A DNA stretch of 64,000 nucleotides, taken from Squalus acanthias (taxonomy: Eukaryota). The first letter of the stretch is position 1, and each line of letters begins with the position of its first letter. Under the pieces are notes generated by a model. It was given only the letters and a program-made list of their open reading frames with translations, was not told the origin of the DNA and ran no database searches. A program made the position numbers and the translations under genes. Positions 3,420 through 49,058 of the stretch are shown one piece after another. The stretch covers positions 71,302,001-71,366,000 of the forward strand of contig CM059432.1 of NCBI GenBank assembly GCA_030390025.1, written 5' to 3'.

Positions 3420-3561
3420 CTTTTTTTTATATTCGTTCCTGGGATGTGGGCTTCGCTGACAAGGCCAGCATTTATTGCCCATTTCTAATTGCCCTTGAGA
3501 ATGTGGTGGTGAGCCGCCTTCTTGAACCGCTGCAGTCCACATGGTGAAGGTACTCCCATAG
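3420..3561 (-). mobile_element. 3' end of a CR1/L2-group LINE
   Basis: Same 3' sequence as at about 52400-52545 and 57010-57150. Confidence 0.75.
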
Positions 3562-4371
3562 TGGGGATAGGCTACCGACAAACATCCACTACAAGCCCAC
3601 TGATTCCCACAGCTACCTGGACTACACTTCCTCCCACCCCGCTTCCTGTAAGGACTCTATTCCATTCTCCAAATTTCTCCGTCTCCGCCGCATCTGTTCT
3701 GACGATGCCACCTTCCATACCAGTGCTTCCGATATGTCTTCCTTTTACCTCAACAGAGGATTCCCCCCTACCGTGGTTGACATGGCCCTCGACTGTGTCC
3801 ATTCCACTTCCCGCACTTCTGCTCTCACCCCTTCTCCCTCCCAGAACCACGATAGGGTTCCCCTTGTCCTCAGCTTTCACCCCAACAGCCTCCACATTCA
3901 ATGGATCATCCTCCGCCATATCCTCCACCTCCAGCGTGATCCCACCACCAAACTCATCTTCCCCTCCCCTCCCCTTTCAGCATTCCGAAGGGACCGCTCC
4001 CATCCTCAACACCCTGGTCCACTCTTCAATCACCTGGAACAGCCCCTCCCCTCCCCACGGCACCTTCACGTGCAAGCGCAGGAGATGCAACACCTGCCCT
4101 TTTACCTCCTCCCTTCCCACTGTCCAGGGCCCCAAACACCCCTTCCAGGTGAAACAGCGATTTACTTGTACTTCTTGCAATTTAGTATACTGTATTCGCT
4201 GCTCACGATGCGGTCTCCTCTACATTGGGGAGACCAAACGCAGATTGGGCGGCCGCTTTGCGGAACACCTCCGTTCAGTCTGGAAGGGTGACCCCGAGCT
4301 TCCGGTCGCTTGTCACTTTAATTCTCCGCTCCACTCCCACTCTGACCTCTCGGTCCTCGGCCTCTTACACT
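3562..4371 (+). mobile_element. Penelope-like element, 5' part (RT C-terminus and GIY-YIG endonuclease, frameshifted), interrupted by the provirus
   Basis: NLVYCIRCSRCGLLYIGETKRRL..RFAEH GIY-YIG motif; the sequence continues after 17102. Confidence 0.88.
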
Positions 4372-6018
4372 TGTAAGGGATTCTGACCCTGCGTGTCTCG
4401 CAGCCTGTGAGATTTCACGCGGCTCTGTGCAGCCTGTATGTCAGTGCGGGTCTAGGCCTTGTTGCCTGTTCTGGTCTCCAGCCAGTCTGGGAACACTAGA
4501 CACACCTGTGAGTGGTTCGAATCACTCGCCCTTACGGTTCTAGACACTGGACTTAGATGCGAGAGCAGTAATGGAGATGAAACTCATGTAGACTCGGTTG
4601 AATGGTACGAAATGGAAAATCTTTATTGCATGATACTTAAGATTATGAAATACATGTCATAAGCACAGATTAATGACAGTACAATCTTACAAGCAGTTAT
4701 ATAGTCGATCTTAGGGAAACGAGGAACGAACGGCACACCGTAAATAGGGGCACACATTACAAATATCCTTAATCCTTAAACCCTCCCCTATCAATATCTA
4801 TCCTAACTAGATTCGTAGGATTTCGAGACTCATGCTCACCACTCGTGATAACTCGGAGAAATTCCGAATAGCTGATCGGATGTTTTTCACCGCAGCACCC
4901 ACGTGTCGGTCAGGAGATCTCCTGGTCCCACTTGTTTACTTGCTTCTGCTGCTCCGGCTAGCAGGCTGGACCGTCTGTTGTGATGAAGACCTGTGTTGGT
5001 TGGTTTAACAGGTACTTTTCCGAGCACAGTTCAGTCAATATCATCGATGTGATATGTTCTTTGCAAGTTCGAAGAAGTCTTCCTGGCAAGGAAAACTTGG
5101 CTGTTCGACCTACAGGCGCGGTCGGGATTTACTGACCGTGGCGATGAATATGGTCTTCCTCTCTTCTCATCTCATCTCATCTCGGGCCTTTGGTTCCGCT
5201 GCCAGTTACCAACATAGGTCTTCGTTACGCGACACGAGGTAGATCCGAACGGATCAGAAAGTTCAACAGTCCTTTTCAAAAAGTCAACAGGCAAGCAGGA
5301 GCCCGACTACGAGTACACAGGAGCAGCCACGAGGTTACGAATAAGAGCACAGGATAAGAGCACAGGAGCAGCCACGATGATAAGAGAAAGATGGACGGTT
5401 TGGAGCCTGCAATTATAGTGCAAAATCTTCCGTTTCCCGCCCAACTTTAATGTCCATTCTTTTGTTTAAGGTCTGGCGCTCAAATGTCTTGTATGGGTGA
5501 TCTCCGTTCTTAATGGGTTTCGGGGCTACTCGTAAATGTCTGAGTACCTGTTAATATTTCTCCCATTGTTAAATCGGTCGGTGTTCTCCCTGGAGGGGTT
5601 GTGGGGCTTCCAAGTGTTTTGTATAACTACCTGCTAACGGCTCTCTCATCGTAGAGTCGTTGGGATTTTACATATTAATGTCTTTTGGATGGGCCCTTGA
5701 TTACTCGGTACAATAGCTTTCATTTGTACCTGGGAGACCGATTTCAGTATTTATGTGTATACTGCAAACCCATAATGTCTCGTGTATTATCTTCACTGTG
5801 CTGAATCTTAATCGATCTTGCACAAATGTTTATTGGAACGCCATCTTGTCTGCCTGTCGAAAAGTCTAGAATGTTCTGTCACGAGGTGCGGCGGCCATTT
5901 TACAGGCTGCTTGTGTCCACTTTAAACCTGGCAGCATTCTGCTGAAATAAAAGCTGTTTGAACGAAACTCTGTGTTTTCTCCTTATTAATAAAATCGCGA
6001 TATATTGCGAATTCTACA
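4372..6018 (-). repeat. 3' LTR (1647 bp)
   Basis: Begins TGTAAGGG and ends ATTCTACA on +; preceded on the minus strand by a purine-rich tract. Confidence 0.97.
4622..4627 (-). terminator. Candidate polyadenylation signal in the 3' LTR
   Basis: Minus-strand AATAAA about 250 nt before the LTR end, in AT-rich context. Confidence 0.55.
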
Positions 6019-6030
6019 GTCCCTCCTGTT
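6019..6030 (-). promoter_or_regulatory. Polypurine tract
   Basis: Minus-strand AACAGGAGGGAC immediately before the TGTAG start of the 3' LTR. Confidence 0.75.
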
Positions 6031-6469
6031 GATGCGAATAACTCCGCTTATCGTATCAAAAATCATAGTGGTGAGCAATATTATCTCGATTTCTCTCCGA
6101 ATCCAGCAAATTAATCCCATAACTTTAACCTAGCTAGGGTCTCTGTGTCGTCCTCATTTCCCAAGAAAATTACATTTTATATCACCGTAGGCATTATTTG
6201 CCCTTAAACTTACACCACTTGTTTTCCTTCCCGGCGTAACCAGGCCGATGCCTCTCGTATCACCTGTATATTCATCTTTTATTCAGGGAAAGGAAAAACA
6301 AAACCCAAAACCAAACAATCATTTTTAACTGTAACACCATCACCAAAATAATCAACACCGACTCTTAAAACATGTCGAGTTCCCAAACGTATTTACAATC
6401 TCTGAAAATCATGATCGAGTACAAACTTCCGCGGCGCACGTGGCGAGCGGGAGTGACGCCATTTTCCGA

Positions 6470-8821
6470 TCACACGGTGCTTTCATCGTGCACACGCACG
6501 TAACGTTCTCGCCACTCTCCCGTGTTTTCATGCTTGGTGAGGCGCTTGTCTCTTTTACAATGTACGACCAATAGGTACACTACAATGAAAACTTGGCATA
6601 CGACTAAAATGTGGGAGGCTATTCTGATCCATGAAGGCACTTCAATATTAGTGAACAGATTCCACCACGGTGGAACTACTATATCCAAAATGTCTGTTCC
6701 TATTTCGACAGTTTTCTGCTCTAATGTGTAAAAATGTTTCTGTGACACCGCAACGGCTTTTAAAAGTTTGGTGAGGTGTTCAGGGAGAGGGGGAATGAGG
6801 TATCCAAAATGCGCGACGAATCGCTGCAAGTCGGTGAAATTCTCTTTTACTGTGAGATGAACAGTGGATGGTTCAGGGATTGGGATAATTCGCTGTTGTG
6901 CTACTTGAACTTCCGCCCTGGGTTTAAAACAGAAACTGCTGTCACTCACCGGACACCGGCTACGGTTTCCATGCTGGTAGTGTTGCGCTGCAGTGGTAAC
7001 ACAATATGTTCCACCCCCGATGTATGCTACCTGCGGAGGCACATGATCTTGTGCCATTGCCTCCATGGTGCAATTCATGGACTTGGCGCCAGTCGTTCTG
7101 AACCCACACTGTGGTGTTAAAAAGGCATTCAAGTGCTGGGGGCACAGTATTATGTGTGCTCCCCTGCCACGACAACCAGAGAGATCTGTACCTGTCATCG
7201 TTTGCTCCCAGCGGATGACGTAAGGTGGAACCGCTGCGTAACGAATGTGGGCTCCCCCCTGAATGACACCAATGTTCTCTACCCGATACACCGGGGCGGG
7301 CTTTGCTGTGTCGCCCAAAACTGGCATGCGTAATACTATTCCCATAATAGTATGGTTTGATCGTCCGCAGTCCACGGGGACTGGGTAAGCTTCTGAAGCT
7401 AGCCTGAGCTGGCACGGACTTAATGCGTTCTGAAAAGGGTGGAGCGCCCGCAGGTGTTTGTTACTTATCCAGGACGGGACCAAACCTTGTTTTAAATCCT
7501 CCAAATTACTGCGGCCCTCGCCCAGTAACCACGCCCCGTAAAGCACGCACACCTCGTTCTGCGCGGCTTGATCGGATGCATTCCGATCTTCCCTAATCAG
7601 GGCATTTACCGTCTTTGCATGTTTCTCCAACTCTGCTATAATTTCCTTTAAATGGAGAGTCATGGCTTGGTCCTCGTGTAAACCTGACCCTACCACTTTA
7701 TTCTCATCTGTTAGAATGTCTTTTAATTGTGTCTTTAAACCATTAATCTGGGTCTGCAGCTCCACACTGTCTAGAGCGTTGACCACAGATGTACCCGTGT
7801 TAAAAGCAGTGAACGCATCGTTCACCAAACCCCTTCTTTGCCTCCCTGCTTGATTCAAAACTTCCTGTGGTGCGGTGTACAAACTTGTTTTATCAATTTC
7901 CGCGAAATCGAATTCGTAAAATTGTCTGAACATCTTGGTCAACAGGACCTGATACAACTGTTCCGTCTTTTTGGGGCACCACTCTGGTAACCGCACCTCG
8001 GTGAGATTTAAAATCACCGAGGCCACCGCGTAATGTACTCCCTGAAATAGTATCTGGTCTGTGGGGACCAGTACCAAACCATTCCCGGGTCCCTTACTAG
8101 TTTTAGGGCACCCTTCTTCCTCAGCTAGAACCACCGGAATCGTGGGCGGGGCTTTGCGTGGGCGCGTAATGAGCTCAGTGGCATTTACTGGGATCGGGGA
8201 GAATGGGGCTCCGCACCCCCTGGTGCTCGCATCCCACCTCATCCCCTGTCCGTTATCCTGCCATTGATTAATGAAAAATATGGAGATGCCTTTGGGGCAA
8301 ACGTACTTTGACCCCCACATACATACATATATTCCCTCGTCCGGTTCCCACCATTTGTCCCAACAGACTTTCACTTGTCCGTTTGTCCCCGTAATTGTCC
8401 GATGGGTATTATTACCCAGTCGTTCCCACTCGACCGAAGAGTTCCTCATAGTTTTGCTCAGCTTTCGCAGCCACCACCATCGGCTCAGTGGGACATTCCC
8501 ACTACAAGTCAAACAAATCCGTTTGCCGACGGTGACGCTGATCCTGGGTGCGATGATCCTTACTTTGGGGCACAGTAAAGAAGTCTCTTTGTAGGCAAAC
8601 CCCGATGTGCTAGAATACTCCGTTGAGTTCGTTCCCAGCCATCCTGGCCACCTTCCCTTGTGGAAATAGGTGCTGGTCTCCTCTGCCTCCCGTCTTCCGG
8701 TCCCATCCACCGCGATGGGGGCCGTGTCCCCGGAACATCCAAACACCACGACATCCTTGGTGCGGCCTCGATAGGCCAATCCACATCCGATTGCCGCGAG
8801 CAATACTAGAATTCGTTCCAT
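6470..8821 (-). CDS. env: Env-like class I fusion glycoprotein (783 aa from the Met at 8821; ORF open from 8980)
   Basis: Signal peptide MERILVLLAAIGCGLA; Ig-like segment; furin site RQRR (7832-7843) followed by a fusion-peptide-like segment and heptad repeat; Cys-rich ectodomain; several N-x-S/T sequons; C-terminal TM and short tail. Confidence 0.9.
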   Translation of the reverse strand: MERILVLLAAIGCGLAYRGRTKDVVVFGCSGDTAPIAVDGTGRREAEETSTYFHKGRWPGWLGTNSTEYSSTSGFAYKETSLLCPKVRIIAPRISVTVGKRICLTCSGNVPLSRWWWLRKLSKTMRNSSVEWERLGNNTHRTITGTNGQVKVCWDKWWEPDEGIYVCMWGSKYVCPKGISIFFINQWQDNGQGMRWDASTRGCGAPFSPIPVNATELITRPRKAPPTIPVVLAEEEGCPKTSKGPGNGLVLVPTDQILFQGVHYAVASVILNLTEVRLPEWCPKKTEQLYQVLLTKMFRQFYEFDFAEIDKTSLYTAPQEVLNQAGRQRRGLVNDAFTAFNTGTSVVNALDSVELQTQINGLKTQLKDILTDENKVVGSGLHEDQAMTLHLKEIIAELEKHAKTVNALIREDRNASDQAAQNEVCVLYGAWLLGEGRSNLEDLKQGLVPSWISNKHLRALHPFQNALSPCQLRLASEAYPVPVDCGRSNHTIMGIVLRMPVLGDTAKPAPVYRVENIGVIQGGAHIRYAAVPPYVIRWEQTMTGTDLSGCRGRGAHIILCPQHLNAFLTPQCGFRTTGAKSMNCTMEAMAQDHVPPQVAYIGGGTYCVTTAAQHYQHGNRSRCPVSDSSFCFKPRAEVQVAQQRIIPIPEPSTVHLTVKENFTDLQRFVAHFGYLIPPLPEHLTKLLKAVAVSQKHFYTLEQKTVEIGTDILDIVVPPWWNLFTNIEVPSWIRIASHILVVCQVFIVVYLLVVHCKRDKRLTKHENTGEWRERYVRVHDESTV

Positions 8822-8834
8822 CCTTCCTTGGTTC

Positions 8835-8856
8835 CTGTGATCAGATAGAATGAGGT
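8835..8856 (-). promoter_or_regulatory. Candidate env splice acceptor
   Basis: CTCATTCTATCTGATCACAG|G, 13 nt upstream of the signal-peptide ATG (AGGATGG). Confidence 0.5.
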
Positions 8857-9111
8857 AGCCAGCCTCGCAAGAGTCTCTGGCTTCTGTGAAGGGTAAGCGG
8901 GTCCCCTGACCTCGCCTCACGTAAACTTCAACGTTCGCTGAATAAACTTTAACTAAACCTAACTTTAAAGCTCCCATCATTTTATCGTTTTCTGTTAAAA
9001 TTAAAACTGCAAACTTAACCTTATTAAAACTATAAACTTAACCTTGAACTATGAACTTAAAACTTAAAACTTATTACTATACAGTGCCGCCCGTTCTCAG
9101 GGCGGCCCCCT

Positions 9112-12100
9112 TTAAATTCTGAGAAGGCTGCTGCGAGCTCTTCCCGACGGTGGGAGGGCACTGACCCTTCCCTCTGATCTGCCGCAGCCTGTTGCTGCAC
9201 TGACCCTTCCCTCTGATCTGCCGCAGCCTGTTGCTGCCGCGATGTGGCCGGCCTGTATCTGGGTTATCTTAACCTTAACTCTACGCCTTGGGGCAGTCTG
9301 GGGACATGACCACATCCTCCTGGGCTGGGGTTCTCTACTTGACCTACGGGGAGTTGCTATGGGCGGGGGTTCCGTGACGGACGGACCGGGTTCCGAGACT
9401 TCCATCGGGATGACCTGGGGTTCCACCACAGTCGCTGGCTCCGCCTCCGCTGACTCCGCCTCCCTAACCTCGGGGCTTGCAGTTTGTGGCTCCGCCCTGC
9501 TCGGCCCAGCAGGCGGCCCTTCACTCGTGATCTCTGCCTCCCCCGAGGACGGGACGTTCAAAGCGGGCGGCCACATCTCTGGGAGCCACACCGGTACTCT
9601 CTGTGCTCCCATAGCGGCTGGCCCTGCCTCCCCTAGCTCCTCCCTCCTGTCTTCGGGACCTGTAGCTTGTGTGTCCACCCTGTGTGGATCTCTATCTGCA
9701 GCCCCCATTCCCTCCAGACCGTTCCTCAGAAACCACCCGTCGTCATCATTATCCTCATCTGCACTATCCTCATCTGACCCGAGTACCCTGAATTCTTCCT
9801 CATCTAACCCCCAATTCCAGAAAAACGCTGCATGATCGTCCGGGATGTCCCTTCCCCTGATGCAAGCTGCTATGCCTGCCTGTGTGCCTTGTGGTCCTAC
9901 CTGGGGCTGTGCTTTCCCACTGGCGGGATTTACCCCTGTAGTTTTCCCTTGCGCACCTGGCTGGTACAGTTTGCATTGGTTTATGTGGAACCACTTAGTG
10001 CGCCGAGGTACTTTTACGGCGTAAACCATGGGACTCGCCTTGTCTACAATGTTGTAGGGTCCCATATACAGTGGTTCCAGACTCCCTACTCTGGCGTAGT
10101 TTCTGACCATGACCTGGTCTCCTACTTCCCACTCCCGCGTTTTGCGGGGTTCCAGCAACAAGCGATTGCCCTGATGCTGCCTTCCCATGTTCCCAGCCGC
10201 CTGCTCATAAACCTGCTTCAGGCGCTCCAAGAGAGTCTGGGCGAACTTGTCCCTGCTTATCTCTTGGAGCTGACCCTCAGTGAGCACCGGCGCTAGCACA
10301 TGGGTGGGGGTTCGCATGAGCCTCCCAGTCATTACCTCGTGCGGGGAGTACCCCGTACTTTTTGACTGACTGGCCCGGACCCCCATGAGGACTAAAGGCA
10401 GAACTTCCGCCCATTTTTGGGGCGAGTTCCTAGTCTCTTTCCTCAATTTCTCCTTCAGGGTCCGGTTCATACGTTCAACAATCCCGGATGACTGGGGATT
10501 GTGTGCTACGTGCCACTTCCCTTCAATGCCCAAAAGCATGAGGGTGTTCTGCATCACCTGGCCGGTGAAATGACTCCCTTGGTCTGACTCCACAAAACGG
10601 GGAAGTCCCCACCGCGAGAACCCTTCCCGGACCAAGATTTTTGCTGTACCCAGTGCCGTAGCTGTTCGACAGGGGAAGGCTTCCACCCACTTGGAAAACA
10701 CATCCACCAAGACGAGGCAATACTTATAACCTCCCTGGGTGGTGGGCAGGGGTCCTATATAGTCGATCTGTATCGACTGCCATGGTCCCTCTACCCTTCT
10801 TACGTGTCCCATGGGCACCTTCCTTTTCTGGGGGTCTGGGTTGTTTGCAGCGCACACAAGACAGTTTGCACAGAACTCGCGGACTTGTTCCCTGAGCCCT
10901 GGCCACCATCCCGCTTGCTCTACCCGTTGCCAGGTAACCTCGGGCCCGGGGTGCCCTGCCCCTGGTCCCTCGTGAGCCAACTGGAGGAATTCCCTCCTGT
11001 GCTGCTGCGGCACAACCCACTGCTCCTCGCGGAACAGCATGCCTTCCTTAACTGAGAGGGTTGCCGTACTGTACGGACCTTCTACCTGTCTCCCCTCAGC
11101 AATGGTTTTTAGGACTGCTTTTAGGGCGGGATCCTGGGCTTGGACGGTCTTAAGGTCTAGGGGCAATGCTACCCTGGTGTTCCCGGGATTCCCGTCCCTG
11201 CCTCGAACCGCTGCTATGGGTCTGGTCCCATAGGGGTTCCAGAAAATGCCGTTGCGGGCACCTTCCCTGGCTAGCGCATCCGCCTGCTGGTTGCCCTCCC
11301 CACGGGGCTCTGTGGAGGAGTGAGCTTTCACCTTATGGATGAAAATCTCTCCTTCCTCCCCTACTGCTGCTGCTAAGATCTTTTCCAGCAAAGGCTTCAC
11401 CGTTAAAGGTCGCCCGTCCGCGGAGGTGTATCCACGGCGGGACCAAATGGCCAGGTATTCCGTGCACGAATTGCAGGTGAACATACTGTCCGAGCAAATC
11501 GTGTATGGGGTTGGGAAAATGTCTGGGTGGGTCACAACGTACACCACGGCAGACAGCTCAGCCTGCTGCGCGCTCATGGTGCTAGGGAGCTTGATCGCCA
11601 GGGCAAGGTCTGCCGCAGGGTCATAAACTCCACACCCTGTGAGTCGCTCGCCAGCAGATACTGTGCTAGACCCATCAACATAAATCTCGCGCCCAGTGGG
11701 ATGTATCCCGGCCCGTAAACCTATGTTGACGTCCCACACCCCTTCCACCGAACACCGGTGGGCTGTACCGGGGTATACCAAATTGGCCGCAAGCCTGGGC
11801 TCGCAAAGACCTTTTACTCTAAGATCCAACTGGGAGAGAAGAAGGGTCCAACGCGCAATGCGCGCGCTGCTTACGGTCCCGTCTTTAATCCTCCCATCCA
11901 GAAGCATCTTAGTTGGTGTGTGATGTGTGAGGAGAGTGATGGGAGAGAGCCCTGTGAAGATCGCTGATCTTTTCACAGCCCAATGCGTGGCTAAAAGGTG
12001 CCTTTCGCAATTGGAGAAACTTCTCTCCACATCCGTTAACACCCTGGATGAATAGACAACCGGCCTCAGCTTGCCGTGACGCTCTTGGAGCAGTACGGCG

Positions 12101-13635
12101 CTTAAGCTGTCTCCGCTGGCAGCTACCTCCAGGAAAAACTCCTTCCCCCCATCTATGGCCCCTAAGGCTGGCGCGGTCTGCAGATCCCTTTTTAACTTCT
12201 CGAAGGCTGCTTGGCAGCCCTCGTCCCAAGACCACTCCACCCCCTTATGGAGGAGTCGGAGGAGCGGCGCTGCTGTGGCCGCATAATCTTCGATAAAATC
12301 CCTGCAGTAACCGGTCAGTCCCAAGAAGGACCTCACACCCCTTACGTTGTTGGGAATCGGTAATTCTTGCACCGACTCCCTCCTTGCCTTGTCTATGGCT
12401 CTTTCCCCAGCGCGTATGGTCAGTCCCAGGAATTTTACTTCCCGCTGACCGATACGTGCTTTCTTAGGGTTTATTTTAAAACCCTTTCTCGCTAACAGCT
12501 CCAATAACTCGTCCAGCAGTGGTCCATGCTCCTCCCTTGAGTCCGTAAATAGGAGCAAATCATCCACATACTGCACTATCTGATTGGGCTGACTAAACTC
12601 CTTTAAACTTCCTGCCATACACTGATGAAAAATACTGGGGCTATTGTGGAAACCCTGTGGCAGACAGTTCCATGTGTACTGTTGTCCTTTAAAAGTAAAG
12701 GCAAACTTGTACTGGTCCTCTCGCCGCAGCGGGATGGACCAAAAACCGTTCGAGATATCCAGCACCGTGAACGTGGTCGCGGACGCTGGGATGCTCCCTA
12801 TTAGGTCAGCAACTGCTGCTACCGTGGGCGCGCAGGCGGGAATGTTACTGTTAAGGACTCTGTAGTCCACCGTGGCTCTCCACGAATTATCCGGCTTCCT
12901 AACCGGCCATAATGGGGAGTTCACGTGTGTGGCTATCGGCCTCAACACGCCCTGCTGCACCAAGGAAGACATTGCTGTCTCCATATCGGGTTCTGCTTCT
13001 TTGGGGAAGTTATACTGCTTTTGGGGTCGGGTCATGGGGTCCCCATCTACGCTGACCTCAAACCCGACCACTCTCCCACAATCGTGCTTGTGGGTTGCAA
13101 ACGCGTGCATATTATCTGACACGTACGTTTGCATGTCCGTTGGGACATCTGCGACCATAAGCCTGAGGTCGTAGCCTCCGGATGGCTGTACGGTACACAG
13201 GACCCCTGTTTCTTCCTCCCCCGGAATCACTATTACCTCGCCTTTTTCACCTTTAGCCCCCCAGAGACAGTGATTTCTGAGGTCCACGAGGATCCCGTGT
13301 CCCGATAGGAGATCAGACCCGAGAATACCTCTTCCACCCCCCTCCTGCCATGCCATCAGTATACACTTCCACTTAAGGCGAAGTGTTCCTAAACGAATGG
13401 ATAGCGGAAGGGAAAACGTGCCAGCCTGTTCTTTTCCTGTGAACCCCGCTAACGTGAATGGGACCTTGGTAGATAGCGGCGAGTCAAAAGGGTTATCTGT
13501 ATGGATTATGGTGCAAGAAGCTCCCGTGTCCAACAAATAACTACCCCTCTGTTTCTCTACCTCCATCTCCACCAAAGGTCGCTTCCACGCATCATAGCTA
13601 AGCGGACACAGGTAGACGGGCTGCGCCGGTTCTAG
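9112..13635 (-). CDS. pol: Pol (protease-RT-degenerate RNase H tether-RNase H-integrase-C-terminal extension), in frame with gag and probably made as Gag-Pol by stop readthrough
   Basis: PR LLDTGAS; RT LDISNGFW, LPQGFHNSP, YVDD; RNase H YVDGS/QAEL/SDS/NQQADALA; IN HHCC, D-D-E (IDYIGP, SDQGSHF, VERMNRTLK) and GPY. The frame is open from the codon after the gag TGA. Confidence 0.95.
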   Translation of the reverse strand, partial: LEPAQPVYLCPLSYDAWKRPLVEMEVEKQRGSYLLDTGASCTIIHTDNPFDSPLSTKVPFTLAGFTGKEQAGTFSLPLSIRLGTLRLKWKCILMAWQEGGGRGILGSDLLSGHGILVDLRNHCLWGAKGEKGEVIVIPGEEETGVLCTVQPSGGYDLRLMVADVPTDMQTYVSDNMHAFATHKHDCGRVVGFEVSVDGDPMTRPQKQYNFPKEAEPDMETAMSSLVQQGVLRPIATHVNSPLWPVRKPDNSWRATVDYRVLNSNIPACAPTVAAVADLIGSIPASATTFTVLDISNGFWSIPLRREDQYKFAFTFKGQQYTWNCLPQGFHNSPSIFHQCMAGSLKEFSQPNQIVQYVDDLLLFTDSREEHGPLLDELLELLARKGFKINPKKARIGQREVKFLGLTIRAGERAIDKARRESVQELPIPNNVRGVRSFLGLTGYCRDFIEDYAATAAPLLRLLHKGVEWSWDEGCQAAFEKLKRDLQTAPALGAIDGGKEFFLEVAASGDSLSAVLLQERHGKLRPVVYSSRVLTDVERSFSNCERHLLATHWAVKRSAIFTGLSPITLLTHHTPTKMLLDGRIKDGTVSSARIARWTLLLSQLDLRVKGLCEPRLAANLVYPGTAHRCSVEGVWDVNIGLRAGIHPTGREIYVDGSSTVSAGERLTGCGVYDPAADLALAIKLPSTMSAQQAELSAVVYVVTHPDIFPTPYTICSDSMFTCNSCTEYLAIWSRRGYTSADGRPLTVKPLLEKILAAAVGEEGEIFIHKVKAHSSTEPRGEGNQQADALAREGARNGIFWNPYGTRPIAAVRGRDGNPGNTRVALPLDLKTVQAQDPALKAVLKTIAEGRQVEGPYSTATLSVKEGMLFREEQWVVPQQHRREFLQLAHEGPGAGHPGPEVTWQRVEQAGWWPGLREQVREFCANCLVCAANNPDPQKRKVPMGHVRRVEGPWQSIQIDYIGPLPTTQGGYKYCLVLVDVFSKWVEAFPCRTATALGTAKILVREGFSRWGLPRFVESDQGSHFTGQVMQNTLMLLGIEGKWHVAHNPQSSGIVERMNRTLKEKLRKETRNSPQKWAEVLPLVLMGVRASQSKSTGYSPHEVMTGRLMRTPTHVLAPVLTEGQLQEISRDKFAQTLLERLKQVYEQAAGNMGRQHQGNRLLLEPRKTREWEVGDQVMVRNYARVGSLEPLYMGPYNIVDKASPMVYAVKVPRRTKWFHINQCKLYQPGAQGKTTGVNPASGKAQPQVGPQGTQAGIAACIRGRDIPDDHAAFFWNWGLDEEEFRVLGSDEDSADEDNDDDGWFLRNGLEGMGAADRDPHRVDTQATGPEDRREELGEAGPAAMGAQRVPVWLPEMWPPALNVPSSGEAEITSEGPPAGPSRAEPQTASPEVREAESAEAEPATVVEPQVIPMEVSEPGPSVTEPPPIATPRRSSREPQPRRMWSCPQTAPRRRVKVKITQIQAGHIAAATGCGRSEGRVSAATGCGRSEGRVSALPPSGRARSSLLRI
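9158..9237. repeat. 39-bp tandem duplication at the end of pol
   Basis: GCACTGACCCTTCCCTCTGATCTGCCGCAGCCTGTTGCT x2, frame-preserving (13 aa). Confidence 0.9.
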
Positions 13636-15447
13636 TCATGGGGTACTATTAGACGGTCCTGCGGCACCTACGGGGCCGGTTGCGACCGCCACCTGTCCAC
13701 GTGCACTCAAGATTAGATTGCGCATGGCTCCTAACACTACTTCGAGGTCATCGGGAGGGGTGGGTGCCTTAGCTTCCTTAGCCGGGACAGGCGCCTGGGC
13801 TCGGACCGCGGGATTTTTATCCTTGGAATCCTTCCAAGGGTTCCTGCAATGCTTGCGCCAGTGCCCTGTCTTCCCACACCCGTAACAAGCATTACCTGCC
13901 TGTGGGGCGCGATTACCCTCCTGATGCCACTCTCTTTGATACGGGGCTGCGGGTCGTACCTCATGTACTCTTCCCTTAAGGGGACGTGTTGCCATACCCC
14001 TTATATTGCGATATCCTAACGTGAGTCGATTCAAGACCGACTCTTCCGTAATGTTGGGGTCATTGGGATCAAACCATGCTTTTGCCTGCTCTCTGACGGC
14101 TGGTAAACTGTTGGCTATTATGCACCTAAGCCAATGAGTTAAAGCGGTGCCTTCCACATCTTCGCGCTCGGGCGCACCTAGGCAGCTGCGCTCATATACT
14201 GGCCACAGCCTGTCGGCAAAAACCTTCGGGGGTTCTCCCTCCATCTGCACTGTCTGTCCCACTCTAGCAAACGGACCTTCATCATTCGCCCCCAACACTT
14301 CCAGGACCTCATCCCTCAATTCCTCATAAGTCTTGGTTCCCCTCTTGCTCTCGCCTGAGAGACACTGAAGGACCGAGCTGTCTAATGAGAACAGCAGCAT
14401 TTTTGCTGTCTCCCCATCATCGCAGCCGTTAATGGCTGCGGCTTGCTCAACTTCTCTGAAATGTACGGAAGGGTCGTCTGACTCGGTCAGCTTCCGTACG
14501 TGATTTATCATAGCTCTCAGCTGATGTGAGCTGTGAGGCAACACCAGCTGTCCGAGGAGATCCCCCGGTTCTTCCCCACCGTTTCTGTTTGGGCCCCTTT
14601 TAATACCCGTTACTGGATACAACGGTCCCTTTCCTACTTCTTTTTCAATGGGCTCTTTTGTTTCTTCCATTGCTTCCTCCCTTACCCAGGTTTCCGAATA
14701 GCTGGGTGGCGCGGAGGGCGCAGTGGCTACTACTTCTTCTGCTTTACTTGGTGGGGATTTCTTAAACTTCTCACCTACTAACGGCTGGTGTGCTGACGGA
14801 CTGATCAGGCACACCATGCCGTTCGCTTTGTTTACGGCCTTCTTGAGGTGCTCTATCTCCCTTTGGCAGGCGCTATGGTCGGCTCCCTCAAACTTATCCT
14901 CAAGGGCCAACTTATATGCCGCCCTAACCCCCGTTAAGCTCTCTTCTTGAGTTCTTATCTGGGCAGCTTGGCGGTTACATCTTTCCTTTAACCTGCTCTC
15001 ATTTAACTTTGCTTCAGTGACCTGGCACTCGAGATAATCTATCCTGGTTTTAAGGTGACTGGAGATTTCCTGGCTTTCTTGGTGCAACTCATTTAAATTC
15101 TTAATGAGCACCTCCCCTCCAGAAACCTTCTCATCCATTTCTCCCTCTAAGTGACTGATTCGAGCTACTAGCGCTGTAATGGTCTGGTTTGAAATCTGAA
15201 CCTGCCTTTTGTAACACATAAGCCAGACTGCTTTCTCAAGTGTCTTTCTATGTTCTTTACTATCTGTCCACCTTTCGGCTGCCTCTAGCGGGCTTTTATC
15301 CGCTAACAATTCACTTATCCACTTCTTAGTTAGATTAACCTTTCCAAACACATAATCTGCTATCTTTTCCTGCATAACATTTCGTACAGTCATTCCAAAG
15401 TCTAACACACTACCCTCTCGCTGCCAGTGTCCTGCCGCGGTCGCCAT
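13636..15447 (-). CDS. gag: Gag polyprotein (603 aa from the first true ATG)
   Basis: ATG in AAAATGG context at 15447; N-terminal coiled-coil-like region; PSAPPSY late domain (14698-14718); CCHC knuckle CYGCGKTGHWRKHC (13846-13887); ends at TGA. Confidence 0.92.
   Translation of the reverse strand: MATAAGHWQREGSVLDFGMTVRNVMQEKIADYVFGKVNLTKKWISELLADKSPLEAAERWTDSKEHRKTLEKAVWLMCYKRQVQISNQTITALVARISHLEGEMDEKVSGGEVLIKNLNELHQESQEISSHLKTRIDYLECQVTEAKLNESRLKERCNRQAAQIRTQEESLTGVRAAYKLALEDKFEGADHSACQREIEHLKKAVNKANGMVCLISPSAHQPLVGEKFKKSPPSKAEEVVATAPSAPPSYSETWVREEAMEETKEPIEKEVGKGPLYPVTGIKRGPNRNGGEEPGDLLGQLVLPHSSHQLRAMINHVRKLTESDDPSVHFREVEQAAAINGCDDGETAKMLLFSLDSSVLQCLSGESKRGTKTYEELRDEVLEVLGANDEGPFARVGQTVQMEGEPPKVFADRLWPVYERSCLGAPEREDVEGTALTHWLRCIIANSLPAVREQAKAWFDPNDPNITEESVLNRLTLGYRNIRGMATRPLKGRVHEVRPAAPYQREWHQEGNRAPQAGNACYGCGKTGHWRKHCRNPWKDSKDKNPAVRAQAPVPAKEAKAPTPPDDLEVVLGAMRNLILSARGQVAVATGPVGAAGPSNSTP
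15429..15446 (-). promoter_or_regulatory. Primer-binding site, tRNA-Ser-like
   Basis: TGGCGACCGCGGCAGGAC starts 5 nt after the 5' LTR. It begins TGG and partly matches the complement of vertebrate tRNA-Ser 3' ends as I recall them (TGGCG....CGGCAGGA). The tRNA identity is uncertain. Confidence 0.65.
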
Positions 15448-15451
15448 TTTC

Positions 15452-17098
15452 TGTAAGGGATTCTGACCCTGCGTGTCTCGCAGCCTGTGAGATTTCACGC
15501 GGCTCTGTGCAGCCTGTATGTCAGTGCGGGTCTAGGCCTTGTTGCCTGTTCTGGTCTCCAGCCAGTCTGGGAACACTAGACACACCTGTGAGTGGTTCGA
15601 ATCACTCGCCCTTACGGTTCTAGACACTGGACTTAGATGCGAGAGCAGTAATGGAGATGAAACTCATGTAGACTCGGTTGAATGGTACGAAATGGAAAAT
15701 CTTTATTGCATGATACTTAAGATTATGAAATACATGTCATAAGCACAGATTAATGACAGTACAATCTTACAAGCAGTTATATAGTCGATCTTAGGGAAAC
15801 GAGGAACGAACGGCACACCGTAAATAGGGGCACACATTACAAATATCCTTAATCCTTAAACCCTCCCCTATCAATATCTATCCTAACTAGATTCGTAGGA
15901 TTTCGAGACTCATGCTCACCACTCGTGATAACTCGGAGAAATTCCGAATAGCTGATCGGATGTTTTTCACCGCAGCACCCACGTGTCGGTCAGGAGATCT
16001 CCTGGTCCCACTTGTTTACTTGCTTCTGCTGCTCCGGCTAGCAGGCTGGACCGTCTGTTGTGATGAAGACCTGTGTTGGTTGGTTTAACAGGTACTTTTC
16101 CGAGCACAGTTCAGTCAATATCATCGATGTGATATGTTCTTTGCAAGTTCGAAGAAGTCTTCCTGGCAAGGAAAACTTGGCTGTTCGACCTACAGGCGCG
16201 GTCGGGATTTACTGACCGTGGCGATGAATATGGTCTTCCTCTCTTCTCATCTCATCTCATCTCGGGCCTTTGGTTCCGCTGCCAGTTACCAACATAGGTC
16301 TTCGTTACGCGACACGAGGTAGATCCGAACGGATCAGAAAGTTCAACAGTCCTTTTCAAAAAGTCAACAGGCAAGCAGGAGCCCGACTACGAGTACACAG
16401 GAGCAGCCACGAGGTTACGAATAAGAGCACAGGATAAGAGCACAGGAGCAGCCACGATGATAAGAGAAAGATGGACGGTTTGGAGCCTGCAATTATAGTG
16501 CAAAATCTTCCGTTTCCCGCCCAACTTTAATGTCCATTCTTTTGTTTAAGGTCTGGCGCTCAAATGTCTTGTATGGGTGATCTCCGTTCTTAATGGGTTT
16601 CGGGGCTACTCGTAAATGTCTGAGTACCTGTTAATATTTCTCCCATTGTTAAATCGGTCGGTGTTCTCCCTGGAGGGGTTGTGGGGCTTCCAAGTGTTTT
16701 GTATAACTACCTGCTAACGGCTCTCTCATCGTAGAGTCGTTGGGATTTTACATATTAATGTCTTTTGGATGGGCCCTTGATTACTCGGTACAATAGCTTT
16801 CATTTGTACCTGGGAGACCGATTTCAGTATTTATGTGTATACTGCAAACCCATAATGTCTCGTGTATTATCTTCACTGTGCTGAATCTTAATCGATCTTG
16901 CACAAATGTTTATTGGAACGCCATCTTGTCTGCCTGTCGAAAAGTCTAGAATGTTCTGTCACGAGGTGCGGCGGCCATTTTACAGGCTGCTTGTGTCCAC
17001 TTTAAACCTGGCAGCATTCTGCTGAAATAAAAGCTGTTTGAACGAAACTCTGTGTTTTCTCCTTATTAATAAAATCGCGATATATTGCGAATTCTACA
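15452..17098 (-). repeat. 5' LTR (1647 bp)
   Basis: Direct repeat of 4372-6018 at offset 11080, with no difference found in a line-by-line visual comparison; adjacent to PBS and gag start. Confidence 0.97.
16488..16525 (-). promoter_or_regulatory. Candidate LTR core promoter (GC/E2F-like box, ETS-like CGGAAG, TATAAT); duplicate at 5408-5445
   Basis: Minus strand reads GGGCGGGAAACGGAAGATTTTGCACTATAATT; two YY1-like motifs lie upstream in U3. An alternative TATATAA lies near 15778-15784. Confidence 0.45.
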
Positions 17099-17102
17099 CA
17101 CT

Positions 17103-17520
17103 GTTCCAATGAAGCTCAATGTAAGCTTGCGGAACAGCACCTCATCTTTCGATTAGGCACTTTACAGCCTTCTGGACTCAACATTGAGTTCAACAATTTC
17201 AGACTATAACCCCTGCCCCTATAATATCACATGGGAGCTGTTGATGATTCTGCCATCCCCATTTGCAACATTTAATCTTTCCTGCCTTGCACCTTAGCAC
17301 AGACCGTCCCTTTTGTTCTTTCCTCCCCTCCCCCCTTTCCCTGCCTCTGCACCTGCTTAAAACCTGTTACATCTCTAACTTTTTCCAGTGCTGACGAAGG
17401 GTCACAGACCTGAAACATTAACACAGTTTCTCTCTCCATGGATGCTGCCTGGCCTGCTGAGTGTTTCCAGCATTTTCTGTTGTTATTTCAGATTTCCAGC
17501 ATCCGCAGTATTTTGCTATT
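17103..17520 (+). mobile_element. Penelope-like element, 3' part with pLTR region
   Basis: Continues the same peptide (EQHLIFRLGTLQPSGLNIEFNNFR), matching the uninterrupted copy at 30894-31601. Confidence 0.85.
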
Positions 17521-20768: not shown

Positions 20769-21082
20769 TATGGATAATCCACTCTTTAACATCAAACTCA
20801 TAAGTGGATATATCTAAGATTTCCTGTGCAGCTGTTATGATAGCTAACTGCTGGTGGAATAATTCCCACATTCCCCACGGTCAACTGTTACAAATTTGTC
20901 AATGCCAATGAAAGTCTCCGCAAGCAGGAGCACTTGTAGAATTTTCAAATCAGTATGGAAGTAATCCCTACGGGTTGCTTATTTCCTTCCATTAACAGAG
21001 TGACTCCCGCCAACGATCGGAAGCTGCGCAGAAGCGTACTGTGCATTAATCTGGAACCAGAGGCTTCTTTTTTTTCCACAGT

Positions 21083-21291
21083 GCATTTTTCCTCACAGCC
21101 TGCTCTCTCCCAGCATTTTTCCTCACAGCTCGCTCTCTCCCGGCATTTTTCCTCACAGCCCGCTCTCTCCTGGCATTTTTCCTCACAGCCCGCTCTCTCC
21201 CGGCATTTTTCCTCACAGCCCGCTCTCTCCCGGCATTTTTCCTCACAGCCCGCTCTCTCCCGGCATTTTTCCTCACAGCCCGCTCTCTCCC
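21083..21291. repeat. Minisatellite, 7 x 30 bp
   Basis: Unit GCATTTTTCCTCACAGCCCGCTCTCTCCCG with few substitutions. Confidence 0.95.
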
Positions 21292-21970
21292 TGTGAACAG
21301 TGAGCCTGCTGGAAGATTCAGTTAAAAATAAGCAATTGCTATGGCATGACACCAAACCTTCAGCAGGCTTTTTATCTTGCTCAACAGTTTTCAAGGCCAC
21401 TTTCATCACATAAAATGTATTCCTCAGTGCATTTTGCTGGTAGTATCTGGCTTTACACATTTATGTACTGACATGCTATCTTTCCTCAAAATGAACTGTG
21501 ACATCTTTTGAGATGGACAATTATTTGATTTTATTAAAAGATTTCAACATGATGGATGAGAAGGATTTATAAGTAATCAGAACCTTGATATTCTATTACC
21601 ACTTTCATTTCACAAGTTTGTACCTAATTCCATGTGTTTTGGAGATAATACATCATCACATATATGGAATTCTATGAAATTCTTGGCAACTCAAAGGTAT
21701 ACTGGAATATCGGGCATACAGTAAAACTTAAGTTATAATTTTGTGCAGAATTATCAATTCAATTTTTAAATGTAATCTTTCTTCATTATTCTAATAGTTA
21801 TTTACCTCCCCATTTTTAGTTTCCTTTGTACCAGTCTAAGAATGGGCAGGTAGCTAGGAATCCACCAATACTGCTTTGGCCAGCAAGTAAGTAAATCGGC
21901 CCTATTTGGAGCCAGTAAACCATGTCAAACTTGCATTCTGTCTTTCCCTCGAATGCTTGGGAAACCCTTT

Positions 21971-27396: not shown

Positions 27397-29309
27397 ATGA
27401 CTGCTGCAAGATCTAAGGCTGCTCCTCGATTTGATGATGACTCCCACCATGTTCTTGTGGAGGGAGTAAGAGGGCGCAGGGAGGTTCTGTTCCCTCTCGA
27501 TGGCCGGAGGAGGCCTCCTCAGCAAACCAAGGCAGCCTGGCTGCAAATTGCTGAGGAGGTAAGCACAAGGTCTTTGTGCTCACGCACCTGGGTGCAGAGC
27601 CGAAAAAGGTTCAATGATCTGCTACGCTCAGCAAAAGTAAGTATCACATCACACTTACCTTCAATCTGCTTCCCTTCTCTTCTCATCACCAGCACTCTGC
27701 ATTGTCAACCTACTCCTCCACATCCCAACTTACCCTTACTTCCCTTGCACCCTTACCTCTCTATCTCTCTCTCTGTACTGAATCACTTCACCATCCTACT
27801 ATGAACCCCTCACACTCGCTTTCACTGTTATGCAATGACAACAACTAACAACGCACAGGGAGGCACCTTGGTTTTGGCACTTCACTCCATCTTTGTCTCC
27901 CTCTAAGCTTCTATGTTATGGATTCTTTACACTCACTCCATCAATCTCGCTGAAGCTCCACTTGTGTCCCTCATTGCAGGAAAAGAGAGCCCACAATAAG
28001 AGGGAGAGAGGGAGGACAGGAGGAGGCCCCACCATCCCTGACGACTTTAACAAACACTGAGGAGGCTGTTCTCGGCATCGTGGGAGCTGCAGAGGAGCTG
28101 GAAGTGGGGGACGGAGAGACGGACGTAGTCGAACAAGCTGGTGACAGAGTAGATTTGCAACCCTCTCATTTTGATTTCATGAGTGACTGATATGGCATCT
28201 GAGGTTCATACAGATTGAGTTCTGATCATCTGCACAAGTCGATGTGCATGCTACGTTAATATCACATGTCTAACTCATGCCTTTACTCCCCCACAGGACC
28301 ATCGAGAGCCCCCTCCCCACTGTCCATGAGGAAAAGCTGGACGACTCCTCAGAGGAAGCTGCAGCCTCTGAGGGAGCAGCGTCAGCAGAATTCAGCGCAC
28401 CCAGCACCAGTGCAGAGACGCACACCTCGGTGGGTCCTTCGCGACATAGAGTAGTGTTGTCACCTGGTGTTTCACAGCTCACAAGTGAACATCAGCAGAT
28501 GGTGGAGACAGCGACAGCGCTGGAGAGTCCTTGACGGAGGTCACAGGACGTTCCTAGCTCTGCTCAGCTGCATGTAGACATTGTGCCTCTGGGGCCATCC
28601 AGAAAGAGAGCGGTGCTGGAACTTCAGGAAGAAGTGCAAGAGGCTCTGACAAGGTTTGCATCCACAGTAACTGCGAGTGCGCAGGGAATGGAGGAGTCCA
28701 TGTCAAATATGAGCAATGCGGTGGTGCACGCAATGGCGAATGTAGGTGCCGCCATGGAAAGGATGGCAACCTCCATGGAGGACATAAATCGCCAGACTCA
28801 AATGAACATGGTGACTCTTCTAAATAGATGTTCTGCGATGGAGGTTAGATGGGCATCTATTGAGGAGAGGAACCAGAGGTACATGGATGTCCCCATTATG
28901 AGGACTGTCAGTACAGAGACGGGTCCTCATGGCCCCACTGATGTGCAGCAAGGTGCTCTCCAGCCACTTGTTAGCAGTGAAGTGCGGGTGACCCATGAGA
29001 GGGATGTTGGTGGTCGACAACCAGGAAGTGTGGGCTCCTCTCCAAGCGCTCACACTCCCATGCCACAGCGGAGCCCTCGGTCACAGCCCTCGATTCCTCA
29101 CCCAACTGAGATGGCCATCTCAGCCCCTGCACAGCCGCAGGAGGAGTAGACTATTGCAGAGCCCTCCAGCTCCCAAACCCAGAGGACACCCGCCAAAGGC
29201 ATCTAAGCAGGTGCAGCATAGAAGTGAGCAAGGTGCCTCTACATCTGCAGAAGCCACAGGGGAAGCACTACGTAGAAGCACGCGTAAGAGAAATTTAAGA
29301 CACAAATAA
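27397..29309 (+). pseudogene. Harbinger Myb/SANT DNA-binding protein gene; exons about 27397-27636, 27980-28140, 28297-29309
   Basis: APRF..., W..IA..V, RTW.Q.RKRFNDL motif; GT-AG introns; premature stops near 28532 and 29147. Confidence 0.8.
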
Positions 29310-29588: not shown

Positions 29589-30490
29589 TTATGCGAATCT
29601 GGCATGGATGAGTGCATCCCTTGCCTCACAGCCAGCAATGTGCTCGTGTACTGGTGGAATTGGCACATCCGCCCCCGCAAGGTGTCCCTCATCTGCCGCC
29701 TCCTCCTCCTCCTCCTCTTCCTCCTCTTCCTCCACTCCCTCCTCTTCCGAGGAGGCTTTGCACTGAGCCACTTGTTCCTCAGGCAACGCTAAGCCATGAT
29801 GCTGTGCGATGTTATGCAGGGCACAGCAGATCACGATGATTCTGGAGTCGCTGACTGGTGCATACGGTAGGGCTCCACCAGATCTGTCGAGGCATCTGAA
29901 TTGCATTTTGAGCAAGCCGATGGTTTGCTCTAATGCTTCTGGTGGAAATGTGGTTCAGATTGTACCGCTTCTCAGCTTCATTTGATGGTCTCCTCATCGG
30001 TGTCATTAGCCACTTTTTCAGGGGGTAGCCCTTGTCTCCAAGTAGCCATCCAGAAAGTTGGGTTGGTAGATTGAAGAGCTGAGGCACAGTAGACTGCTGC
30101 AGGATGCAAGATTCATGGCGACTGCCAGGGAACTTGGCGCAAACATGCATGATGTTCTTCCTGTGGTTACACACCAGCTGGACATTAAGGGAGTGGAAGC
30201 CCTTGCGGTTGACAAATACAGCTGGGATGTGATGGGGTGCCCTAATGGCAACATGTGTGCAGTCTACGACACCCTGCACCCTTGGCAAGCTTGCCATATT
30301 TGCAAAGCCAACCGCACGCGTGGTTACACTTGCTTCATCTGTGGAGAAGTGGATGTAATTGTGCGACTTTGCAAAGAGGGCATCGGTAACCTGCGTGATG
30401 CAAGTGTGTGCAGCCGACTGGGAAATGCTGCTGATGTTTGCTGATGATCCCTGGAAGGACCCTGAAGCAAAGAAGTTGAGTGCGGTGGTG
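29589..30490 (-). pseudogene. Harbinger (HARBI1-like) DDE transposase, 5'-truncated and frameshifted
   Basis: [19 protein letters not shown] and LLGDKGYPL motifs; acidic tail. Confidence 0.9.
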
Positions 30491-31648
30491 AAATAAAAAC
30501 AGAAAATGCTGGAGATACTCAGCAGGTCAGGCAGCATCTGTGAAGAGAGAAACAGAGTTAACGTTTCAGGTCGATGACCTTTTGTCAGAACTGGAAAAAA
30601 GCAGGAAATGGAACAGATTTTTAAGCAAGTGACAGGGCTGGGAAAGGGGGAGGGGATGAAAGAACAAAAGGGAAGGTCTGTGATAGGATAGAAGGCAGGA
30701 GAGGTTAAGAGACATTAAGAGATATTCAAGGCAAAAGGAGATGGTAATGAGACAGGTTAAGAAACAAAGGATGGCTCTAGATGAAGTGTAAATTGCCCTG
30801 GCAGAATGAAAGACAGCTGCCAAGTGGGAGAGAAGAACAGAAGGCACAAACAAAAAGTGTGGATAAAAAAAATATATATGATAGGGACCGAGGTTATGAT
30901 CTGAAATTGTTGAACTCTATGTTGAGTCCAGAAGGCTGTAAAGTGCCTAATCGAAAGATGAGATGCTGCTGCTCGAGCTTACGCTGAGCTTCAGTGGAAT
31001 AATGCAAGAGGCCGAGGACGGTGAGGTCTGAGTGGGAGTGGAGCGGAGAATTAAAGTGACAGGCGACCAGAAGCTCGGGGTCCCCCTTACGGACTGAATG
31101 GAGGTGTTCCGCAAAGCGGTCACCCAATCTGCGTTTGGTCTCCCCAATGTAGAGGAGACCACATCGTGAGCAGCAAATACAGTATACTAAATTGCAAGAA
31201 GTACAAGTAAATCGCTGTTTCACCTGGAAGGGGTGTTTGGGGCCCTGGACAGTGGGAAGGGGGGAGGTATAAGGGCATGTGTTGCATCTCCTGCGCTTGC
31301 ACGGGAAGGTGCCGGGTGAAGGGGAAGGGGTGCTGGGGGTGATAGAGGAGTGGACCAGGGTGTCGCGGAGGGAGCGGTCCCTTTGGAATGCTGAAAGGGG
31401 AGGTGAAGGGAAGATGTGTTTGGTGGTGGGATCACGCTGGAGGTGGCAGAAATAGCGGAGGATGATCCGTTGAATGTGGTGGCTAGTGGGGTGAAAGGTG
31501 AGGACAAGGGGAACTCTATCGTGGTTCCGGGAGGGAGGGGCCGGGGTGAGGACAGAAGTGCGGGAGATAGAACGGACACAGTCAAGGGCCGTGTGAACCA
31601 CAGTAGAGGGGAATCCTCAGTTGAGGAAAAAGGAAGACATGTCAAAGG
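30491..31648 (-). mobile_element. Penelope-like element fragment (GIY-YIG endonuclease plus pLTR)
   Basis: ORF 30894-31601 has a GIY-YIG motif and closely matches 3562-4371; it sits at the break in a Harbinger transposase. Confidence 0.88.
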
Positions 31649-48945: not shown

Positions 48946-49058
48946 TATGTTTATACGCACAGCTTCCATCAGCAGTCCACCACTGGAAAGCAAGCAGGAA
49001 TGTTAAAAGCCCAGGCTGAGTTTTGCCCTCTTAAATACAGGAATCCTGTGGTTAATTG

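Follow-up and report, generated by a model that had tools for sequence, protein, structure and literature searches.

Which retroviral lineage has left an intact provirus in the genome of Squalus acanthias, and how did it spread there? The locus lies in a window of 64,000 nucleotides (GenBank assembly GCA_030390025.1, contig CM059432.1, positions 71,302,001 to 71,366,000 of the forward strand; coordinates below are positions in this window), in which a provirus occupies positions 4372-17098 on the minus strand. A preliminary description, made from the sequence alone, had read it as a very young enveloped provirus of a lokiretrovirus (Loki)-like lineage. Our analysis shows that the element is a real, recently integrated and intact provirus, and that it is best read as a deep-branching classical retrovirus, not a lokiretrovirus, with a class III endogenous retrovirus (ERV) similar to snakehead retrovirus (SnRV) as the best reading. 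With good confidence, we see in it a recent insertion of a class III lineage, of SnRV-like or clade Huo grade, that flooded a cartilaginous-fish germ line and whose closest kin are ERVs of sharks, skate, frogs and coelacanth.

The two long terminal repeats (LTRs) are identical across exactly 1,647 nt and have the ends TGT...ACA, and the 4-bp target-site duplication (TSD) CACT flanks the provirus on each side. A single host repeat was split by the insertion and makes up both flanks, and an unbroken copy of it lies on the opposite strand at 30876-31537; from a motif we take this repeat to be GIY-YIG/Penelope-like, and a Pfam search of it gave no match. The insertion and its genes are laid out as follows.

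4368-4371, no strand: left TSD, CACT
17099-17102, no strand: right TSD, CACT
3421-4371, plus strand: host repeat split by the provirus, resuming at 17099-17227
15452-17098, minus strand: 5' LTR, 1,647 nt
4372-6018, minus strand: 3' LTR, same sequence as the 5' LTR, with AATAAA at 4622-4627
6019-6030, minus strand: polypurine tract adjoining the 3' LTR
13636-15447, minus strand: gag, 603 aa, ATG at 15447, with an N-terminal coiled coil, PSAP, a capsid region and one CCHC knuckle (13846-13887)
13632-13638, minus strand: gag stop in TGA-CTAG context with pol in frame, a putative readthrough signal
9918-13635, minus strand: pol core with PR, reverse transcriptase (RT; YVDD at 12570), tether, RNase H and integrase
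9112-9915, minus strand: pol-frame tail of 267 codons, open in the window copy and neutral in the family
6470-8821, minus strand: env, 783 aa, ATG at 8821, with signal peptide, immunoglobulin (Ig)-like head, F-type core, RQRR site (7832-7843), fusion peptide, heptads, transmembrane segment (about 6547-6634) and short tail
8305-8563, minus strand: probable Ig-like domain at the Env N-terminus, with two Cys at 8512 and 8326

The genes gag, pol and env are all open, and the motifs DTGA, YVDD, RNase H D-E-D-D, HHCC, D-D(35)-E and one CCHC are intact. Elsewhere in the window, open reading frames (ORFs) of at least 200 aa resemble repeat fragments. On all these points, including the identity of the LTRs and the fragmentary look of the other coding elements, the preliminary description was borne out. 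With 0 differences over 1,647 nt of LTR, the 95% upper age is 0.4 million years (My) if the mammalian rate of Wang and Han is applied, and 4.1 My with the shark rate assumed in Han 2015. Near-identical sequence is present in 14 sequencing runs (5 organism codes, 6 studies), and in the 4 runs that were mapped all 30 bins were covered. In having identical LTRs and intact genes, this shark provirus resembles ERVi, for which the available text describes identical LTRs with gag, pro, pol and env all intact (PMC10435555). According to the same portion of that survey (Wang and Han 2023), 13 cartilaginous-fish genomes were screened and the 37 host orders include no cartilaginous fish; the provirus family would represent a recent invasion of a host class for which that screen listed no case.

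The lineage was assigned from three trees, two of RT alone with 58 and 33 rows, and one of RT combined with the tether, with 27 rows. References included SnRV, walleye dermal sarcoma virus (WDSV), 13 foamy and 11 gammaretroviral records and two Loki loci matched by eye to published Loki RTs; the smaller trees omit long-branch Gypsy rows and redundant foamy and gammaretroviral rows. In all three trees the provirus RT lies inside the classical retroviruses (support 100/98, 99/98 and 100/99), grouping with frog and coelacanth ERVs (85-93 bootstrap), and in the best RT+tether tree the provirus clade joins SnRV at 79/80. Loki is sister to all other retroviruses in the RT and RT+tether trees, just as the preliminary description had stated. 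RT identity is 44% to SnRV vs 34% to Loki, and with RT+tether the approximately unbiased (AU) test rejected forcing the provirus clade with Loki (p=0.001). The Loki RT signature is missing from the provirus, where the residues read like SnRV, and the Loki RT motif pattern had 0 matches across the shark genome. An RT in the crown clade, LTRs, a primer-binding site (PBS), a polypurine tract and gag-pol-env together place the element in classical Retroviridae. A Ty3/Gypsy affiliation (Metaviridae, errantiviruses) was rejected, as the RT falls outside that clade and the provirus has a dual RNase H. Foamy viruses have a Gag without CCHC and accessory bel genes; the provirus RT is not in the foamy clade, its Gag has a CCHC and no accessory ORF was found, which sets it outside Spumaretrovirinae. 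A separate dual-RNase-H Pol clade (P0013-P0017) sits loosely with foamy viruses in the RT trees (92-98 bootstrap).

The provirus is unusual in its envelope. Its env frame runs open between 9037 and 6470, and an AlphaFold model of the protein (pLDDT 57.6) has hPIV3 F and RSV F as its top Foldseek matches (E 4e-11). With VIA, the top 15 rows are all paramyxovirus or pneumovirus F or foamy Env (Z 9.0-5.6), the best being measles F (Z 9.0, rmsd 7.5, 289 aligned residues), with foamy 8rm0 at Z 8.4. At the sequence level, Pfam gave no Fusion_gly match on the provirus Env, and Pfam and PDB sequence searches with Env and 25 homologues detected no F except for one weak Baculo_F match; among ESM Atlas neighbours, Baculo_F or Fusion_gly appears on a minority of members. 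A profile was built from 30 family members and controlled by 20 shuffles and a reversal of each protein (highest control 5.7 bits). It scores 63-67 bits on Loki, 33 on WDSV, 21 on SnRV and 3.6-19.5 on foamy Envs (13/13), whereas none of 11 gammaretroviral Envs was detected, all scoring below 0 bits. The beta-rich core profile alone gives 10.6-22.6 bits on foamy Envs vs at most 2.7 on shuffles, with SnRV at 7.6 and WDSV at 5.5. The Env alignment is colinear: it begins at a CP-x-P-x-G motif, passes the furin site and ends in the Cys-rich core. The Envs of WDSV (L053) and SnRV (L051) both score on the F-type profile and align colinearly, and a single-sequence comparison of SnRV Env with Loki Env gave no match. 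The preliminary description had taken a dual RNase H with an F-like Env to define lokiretroviruses; both traits are present in the provirus, as Pfam, Foldseek and VIA indicate, and its Env also has an RxKR-type site, but neither trait can define Loki, since a dual RNase H is common to all retroviruses and the Envs of SnRV, WDSV and foamy viruses share the F signal.

About 230 residues precede the F core in the provirus Env. Pfam Ig_3 matches this region at E=0.032 on the provirus and E=0.0085 on a homologue, a bamboo-shark homologue in UniRef is named 'Ig-like domain-containing', and the Foldseek matches listed for a model of the head (pLDDT 50) are Ig-domain chains, the best at E=0.008 and none at E<=0.001. 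These weak lines are concordant, and the head is probably an Ig-like domain, which may bind the receptor. The N-terminus of SnRV Env also looks Ig-like by eye. The closest named relatives of the Env are from skate (76%) and sawshark; among 20 further relatives 16 are named, 13 from sharks or skate and 3 from frogs. Taken by themselves, these viral relatives make a cartilaginous-fish host likely. In the frog Mantella, many full-length 677-aa Env homologues (P0100-P0113) occur in one genome, which suggests a parallel recent burst of the same Env type in amphibians.

Fernandez et al. assigned orthoretroviral Env to class Ia and foamy Env to class Ib by structure, noting no sequence conservation, and SnRV and WDSV are classified in Orthoretrovirinae. 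For the origin of retroviral Env, the available text of Wang and Han leaves four scenarios open (PMC7947760). An F-type core in SnRV, WDSV and the shark/frog clade favours scenarios with an F-type Env in the common ancestor. We tentatively propose, at somewhat less than even chances, that the F-type (class Ib) Env is ancestral to retroviruses, was kept in Loki, foamy viruses, SnRV, the walleye epsilonretrovirus and the shark/frog clade, and was later replaced by the gamma type. The provirus family would then be a sequence bridge carrying an Ig-like receptor-binding head, dependent on its Env and still invading the elasmobranch germ line (~3,000 copies) while shedding pol but not env. The Env profile could be used to test for a single ancestral F-type fusogen across vertebrate genomes.

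The size of the family was estimated from pattern counts (at most one mismatch) across 3.71 Gb in 3,882 contigs. An env 26-mer occurs 3,028 times, the LTR-PBS junction 2,931, an RT 26-mer 1,562 and the LTR start 4,930 times, with 0 for reversed-pattern controls; the copy-number check suggested in the preliminary description thus yields ~3,000 env-bearing copies. Of 40 LTR loci scored, 39 are 97-100% identical, and 4-bp TSDs are found at 5 of 6 LTR pairs and 10 of 11 solo-type loci. All 54 env matches scored, which are best hits only, are 99-100% identical and free of stops. One solo LTR with its flanks was seen both on a chromosome-scale and on a small contig (L018 and L019), a haplotig or segmental duplicate.

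About half of the env-bearing copies lack RT. Among 19 loci picked by env, 8 break at ~9983, and 7 of those (L035, L040, L041 and L044-L047), which keep gag and env, join 13604 across 245 inserted nt common to all seven, which look like the coiled coil in the Gag of a related retrovirus family (35% to P0097, E=1e-4); the joint is also present in sequencing run X1. The insert probably arose by a template switch, and since the same joint recurs across loci, a pol-less, env-bearing derivative was probably amplified in trans.

For the selection tests, env and gag copies were chosen by LTR likeness. In 7 env copies (349 codons), one of which has a stop and a frameshift, we counted 19 synonymous vs 10 other changes, giving a ratio of non-synonymous to synonymous polymorphism (pN/pS) of 0.16; when transitions are given a 10x weight, p is still 1e-4. 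Nine gag copies show 53 synonymous vs 22 other changes (pN/pS 0.12). Env changes shared between copies comprise 11 synonymous and 1 non-synonymous, and private ones have a pN/pS of 0.34. The tail of the pol frame, over 19 env-picked copies, has 22 synonymous vs 86 other changes (pN/pS 1.23) with frameshifts in 9 of the 19, and none of its six reading frames is clearly constrained, implying that it is probably a spacer, not a protein under selection. It evolves fast (154 distinct substitutions per kb) and holds a 39-nt tandem duplication near 9158-9237. As env is under purifying selection, spread of the family probably needed Env. The available part of an earlier study says that megafamilies lack env, large ERV families usually replicating inside the cell (PMC4102558); a family of ~3,000 copies that appears to keep env is an exception to this view.

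Some observations weigh against our assignment. With RT alone, forcing the provirus and its nearest relative with Loki was not rejected (AU p=0.188); the link to SnRV reaches only 79/80 and shifted between trees, in which Loki was represented by two rows only and references for ERV-L, CmiERV-I, class II, fish foamy-like ERVs and Odin were absent. By its RNase H the provirus falls beside Loki and the foamy viruses and apart from SnRV (95/95), in a tree where long branches meet, and integrases from its relatives in frogs and coelacanth cluster with Loki (98/95); the provirus integrase, closer in identity to Loki (42%) than to SnRV (36%), is placed with weak support. (Relatives are annotated NYNRIN-like, and the integrase tree was built without CGIN1 itself.) The Env profile scores Loki highest, hhalign pairs the two Env families at 98%, and the provirus shares its gag-stop 7-mer, TGA-CTAG, with Loki locus L085 where SnRV has TAG-GGC; as for the Env model itself, its quality is moderate (pLDDT 57.6, VIA Z 9 at rmsd 7.5). 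All this would suit a true lokiretrovirus, which would be the first in cartilaginous fish, given that, in the available text of Wang and Han, none of 6 chondrichthyan genomes had Loki (PMC7947760). We regard that as very unlikely: Loki is defined by RT, and the RT evidence above speaks against it from tree topology, RT+tether test and motif alike, while the Env tree (11 rows, unrooted, its base without resolution) does not join the provirus to Loki and the Gags show no similarity (E=0.08). The proposed extension of the Loki host range to cartilaginous fish thus falls, and the label 'Loki-like' survives for the readthrough signal, RNase H group and Env similarity but not for the RT lineage. An unlikely reading, though one with appreciable weight, is a mosaic, in which the shark/frog/coelacanth clade and Loki exchanged their 3' half (RNase H, integrase and env), leaving RT alone with a different origin, or Loki is the same clade with a swapped RT. 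The conflict between RT, RNase H and integrase trees, including the placement of Loki integrase with the frog and coelacanth relatives, speaks for it, as do the repeated RNase H and integrase replacements in retroviruses described in the available text of Wang and Han (PMC7947760). Against it, the domains are short and subject to the limits of placement just given, and shared ancestral states suffice, as foamy viruses also have the same RNase H group and an F-type Env. In a deep-branching classical retrovirus, the Loki-like traits fit either retained ancestral states or an old domain exchange.

The same weighing applies to how the copies arose. That LTR identity and intactness are artefacts of an assembly consensus, a concern raised by thousands of near-identical copies in an assembled sequence, strikes us as highly improbable. 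A collapsed consensus is an unlikely source because other LTRs and LTR pairs carry resolved differences: the six pairs have 0, 4, 4, 1, 0 and 3 substitutions (4 of the 5 other pairs carry 1-4), the nearest other LTR in the genome is 3 substitutions and gaps away, and the provirus pair is distinct from all 38 other LTR loci scored; the perfect TSD and clean empty-site model argue likewise. Spread by retrotransposition inside the cell, or from a small number of master copies, with env intact only since the burst is too young for decay, would fit the 97-100% identity of copies, the complementation in trans evident from RT-less copies, the more nearly neutral private env changes and the usual mode of large ERV families in the available text of PMC4102558. 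The counts, moreover, may include haplotig duplicates, and the env test relies on 7 close copies and 349 codons. We nonetheless judge this reading improbable, since shared env changes are overwhelmingly synonymous (11:1) while the adjoining pol tail is neutral, the recurrent deletion drops pol and keeps env, and the env count is close to the LTR-PBS count. Under our preferred reading of an Env-dependent classical retrovirus, new copies would arise mainly through Env-dependent particles, by reinfection of germ cells or cell-to-cell passage into them, with pol-less copies carried along in trans.

How such a provirus may be expressed is suggested by signals in and beside the 5' LTR.

16491-16497, minus strand: candidate TATA box (LTR position 602) with a GC-rich box upstream and a presumed start site
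15914-15925, minus strand: probable env splice donor within the 5' LTR, exon end 15920 (LTR position 1179), GTG/GTGAGC
8829-8860, minus strand: probable env splice acceptor CACAG/GA, exon start 8834, 13 nt 5' of the env ATG
15429-15446, minus strand: PBS for tRNA-Arg(TCG), 5 nt beyond the LTR, overlapping the gag ATG

The donor 15-mer is retained in 27 of 28 other LTR loci and the acceptor 22-mer in 18 of 19 env loci. The joint 15920-8834 itself, with GT..AG ends, was found in one contig, with 21 nt on its short side, in 1 of 4 runs (X1, whose kind was guessed as RNA), which tempers this assignment. If the splice is real, transcription would start upstream of LTR position 1179, probably behind the TATA box at 602, making R-U5 a 1-kb leader. 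A promoter at a TATA-like word at LTR position 1316 conflicts with the donor lying upstream of it and was kept as a fallback only. No upstream ATG reaches the splice joint, as a check for a leader peptide showed. Host tRNA-Arg(TCG) genes are complementary to the PBS at 4 of 4 loci scanned, and the gag ATG on the PBS is in a strong initiation context; because the two overlap, no leader separates the PBS from gag. The 3' end of the primer tRNA gene has 422 exact matches in the genome, where long tandem arrays of a 1.62-kb unit with tRNA-Arg(TCG) and tRNA-Ser(GCT) genes occur (L087-L089; G000:C26, 39.0-42.2 Mb). For a vertebrate retrovirus it is unusual to have the gag start on the PBS and to carry the leader and probable splice donor within the long LTR, and the overlap predicts that primer loading competes with translation.

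The pol gene is a 1,507-codon frame directly behind the gag TGA and in the same frame as gag. Pfam places RVP, RVT_1, RT_RNaseH/RT_RNaseH_2 (the tether, 470-602), RNase_H (650-793), Integrase_H2C2 and rve on the product. At 483 family junctions between gag and pol, TGA is present in 100 of the 100 listed. A UGA-CUAG context favours readthrough, and with TGA in all listed junctions the stop is therefore a feature and readthrough a likely route to Pol. The gag and pol genes of Loki loci L084 and L085 also share one frame split by TGA-CTA, suggesting readthrough there; the available text of the main Loki paper (PMC7947760) held no such statement. No accessory ORF was found in the pol tail, the 3' untranslated region (UTR) or the LTR, and the 3' UTR and LTR hold no ATG-initiated ORF of more than 45 codons. 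The closest named Gag relative, from skate, is 52% identical with nearly the same N-terminal residues, and zf-CCHC matches in Pfam on this homologue.

Taken together, the long LTR may supply the whole leader, and unspliced RNA, read from an AUG on the tRNA-Arg primer site, would give Gag and, by readthrough at UGA-CUAG, Gag-Pol. Splicing from a donor within the LTR to an acceptor 13 nt short of the env AUG would provide the env message, whose product is predicted to be a class Ib (F-type) fusogen that furin cleaves and whose Ig-like head is the probable receptor-binding part.

Among known systems, SnRV is the nearest named exogenous virus by RT, and its Env core is homologous. SnRV reportedly uses an arginine-tRNA primer and has a coiled-coil Gag according to its original description; the provirus is similar in both respects (Gag N-termini match weakly by BLASTP, E=0.001) and in having gag and pol in one frame. 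It differs in its UGA-CUAG gag stop (UAG-GGC in SnRV), in having none of the ~250-nt PBS-gag leader with leader peptide and splice donor of SnRV, in a much longer LTR, in that no 3' accessory ORF was found, and in an RNase H that groups with Loki and foamy viruses. With Loki, as given in the available text of PMC7947760, it shares an F-like Env with furin site, the tether with a group I RNase H, a similar integrase and an in-frame TGA-CTA gag stop, and some Loki copies also have identical LTRs. Beyond the RT, it differs from Loki in its Gag CCHC knuckle, the lack of a separate smc ORF, and the extra N-terminal ~230 aa of Env with the Ig-like domain, missing in Loki Env. Its Env has the same predicted core as foamy Env and paramyxovirus and pneumovirus F (class Ib; available text of PMC11468914), an F scaffold with an added module; in the provirus this module is Ig-like and sits at the N-terminus, a position it shares with coronavirus spike, whereas that of foamy Env is inserted between subunits (PMC11468914). 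The provirus also differs from foamy viruses in its RT and in a signal peptide predicted by eye to be cleavable.

The SnRV-like kind is already known from sharks. The available parts of four studies describe class III ERVs of an SnRV-like clade, or clade Huo, among them lineage I of the elephant-shark CmiERVs (PMC12193657, PMC6001957, PMC4422223 and PMC4977317), report SnRV-like ERVs in chimaera and elephant shark (PMC4422223) and find clade Huo in all vertebrate groups (PMC6001957). CmiERV-I was dated there to ~75 My, vs <0.4-4 My for the shark provirus. A literature search yielded no account of the family, none of Loki in sharks and none of an F-type Env in SnRV or WDSV, though published work on anamniote envelopes and cartilaginous-fish foamy ERVs may overlap; what is new in the family is its retention of env over ~3,000 copies, the Env bridge, a gag start that overlaps the PBS, an env splice donor that appears to sit within the LTR, and the probable Loki-like readthrough at UGA-CUAG.

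Elsewhere in the window, two copies, ~80% alike, of an older repeat lie at 27397-29300 and 35434-37048, with an inverted copy near 53500-55300, and a neighbouring ORF at 29812-30714 is presumably a Harbinger-type transposase fragment, going by its motif. A tandem array of a 30-nt unit occupies 21053-21322, and ~800 nt at 49031-49830 form an extremely G-rich low-complexity repeat with a GC skew of 0.78.

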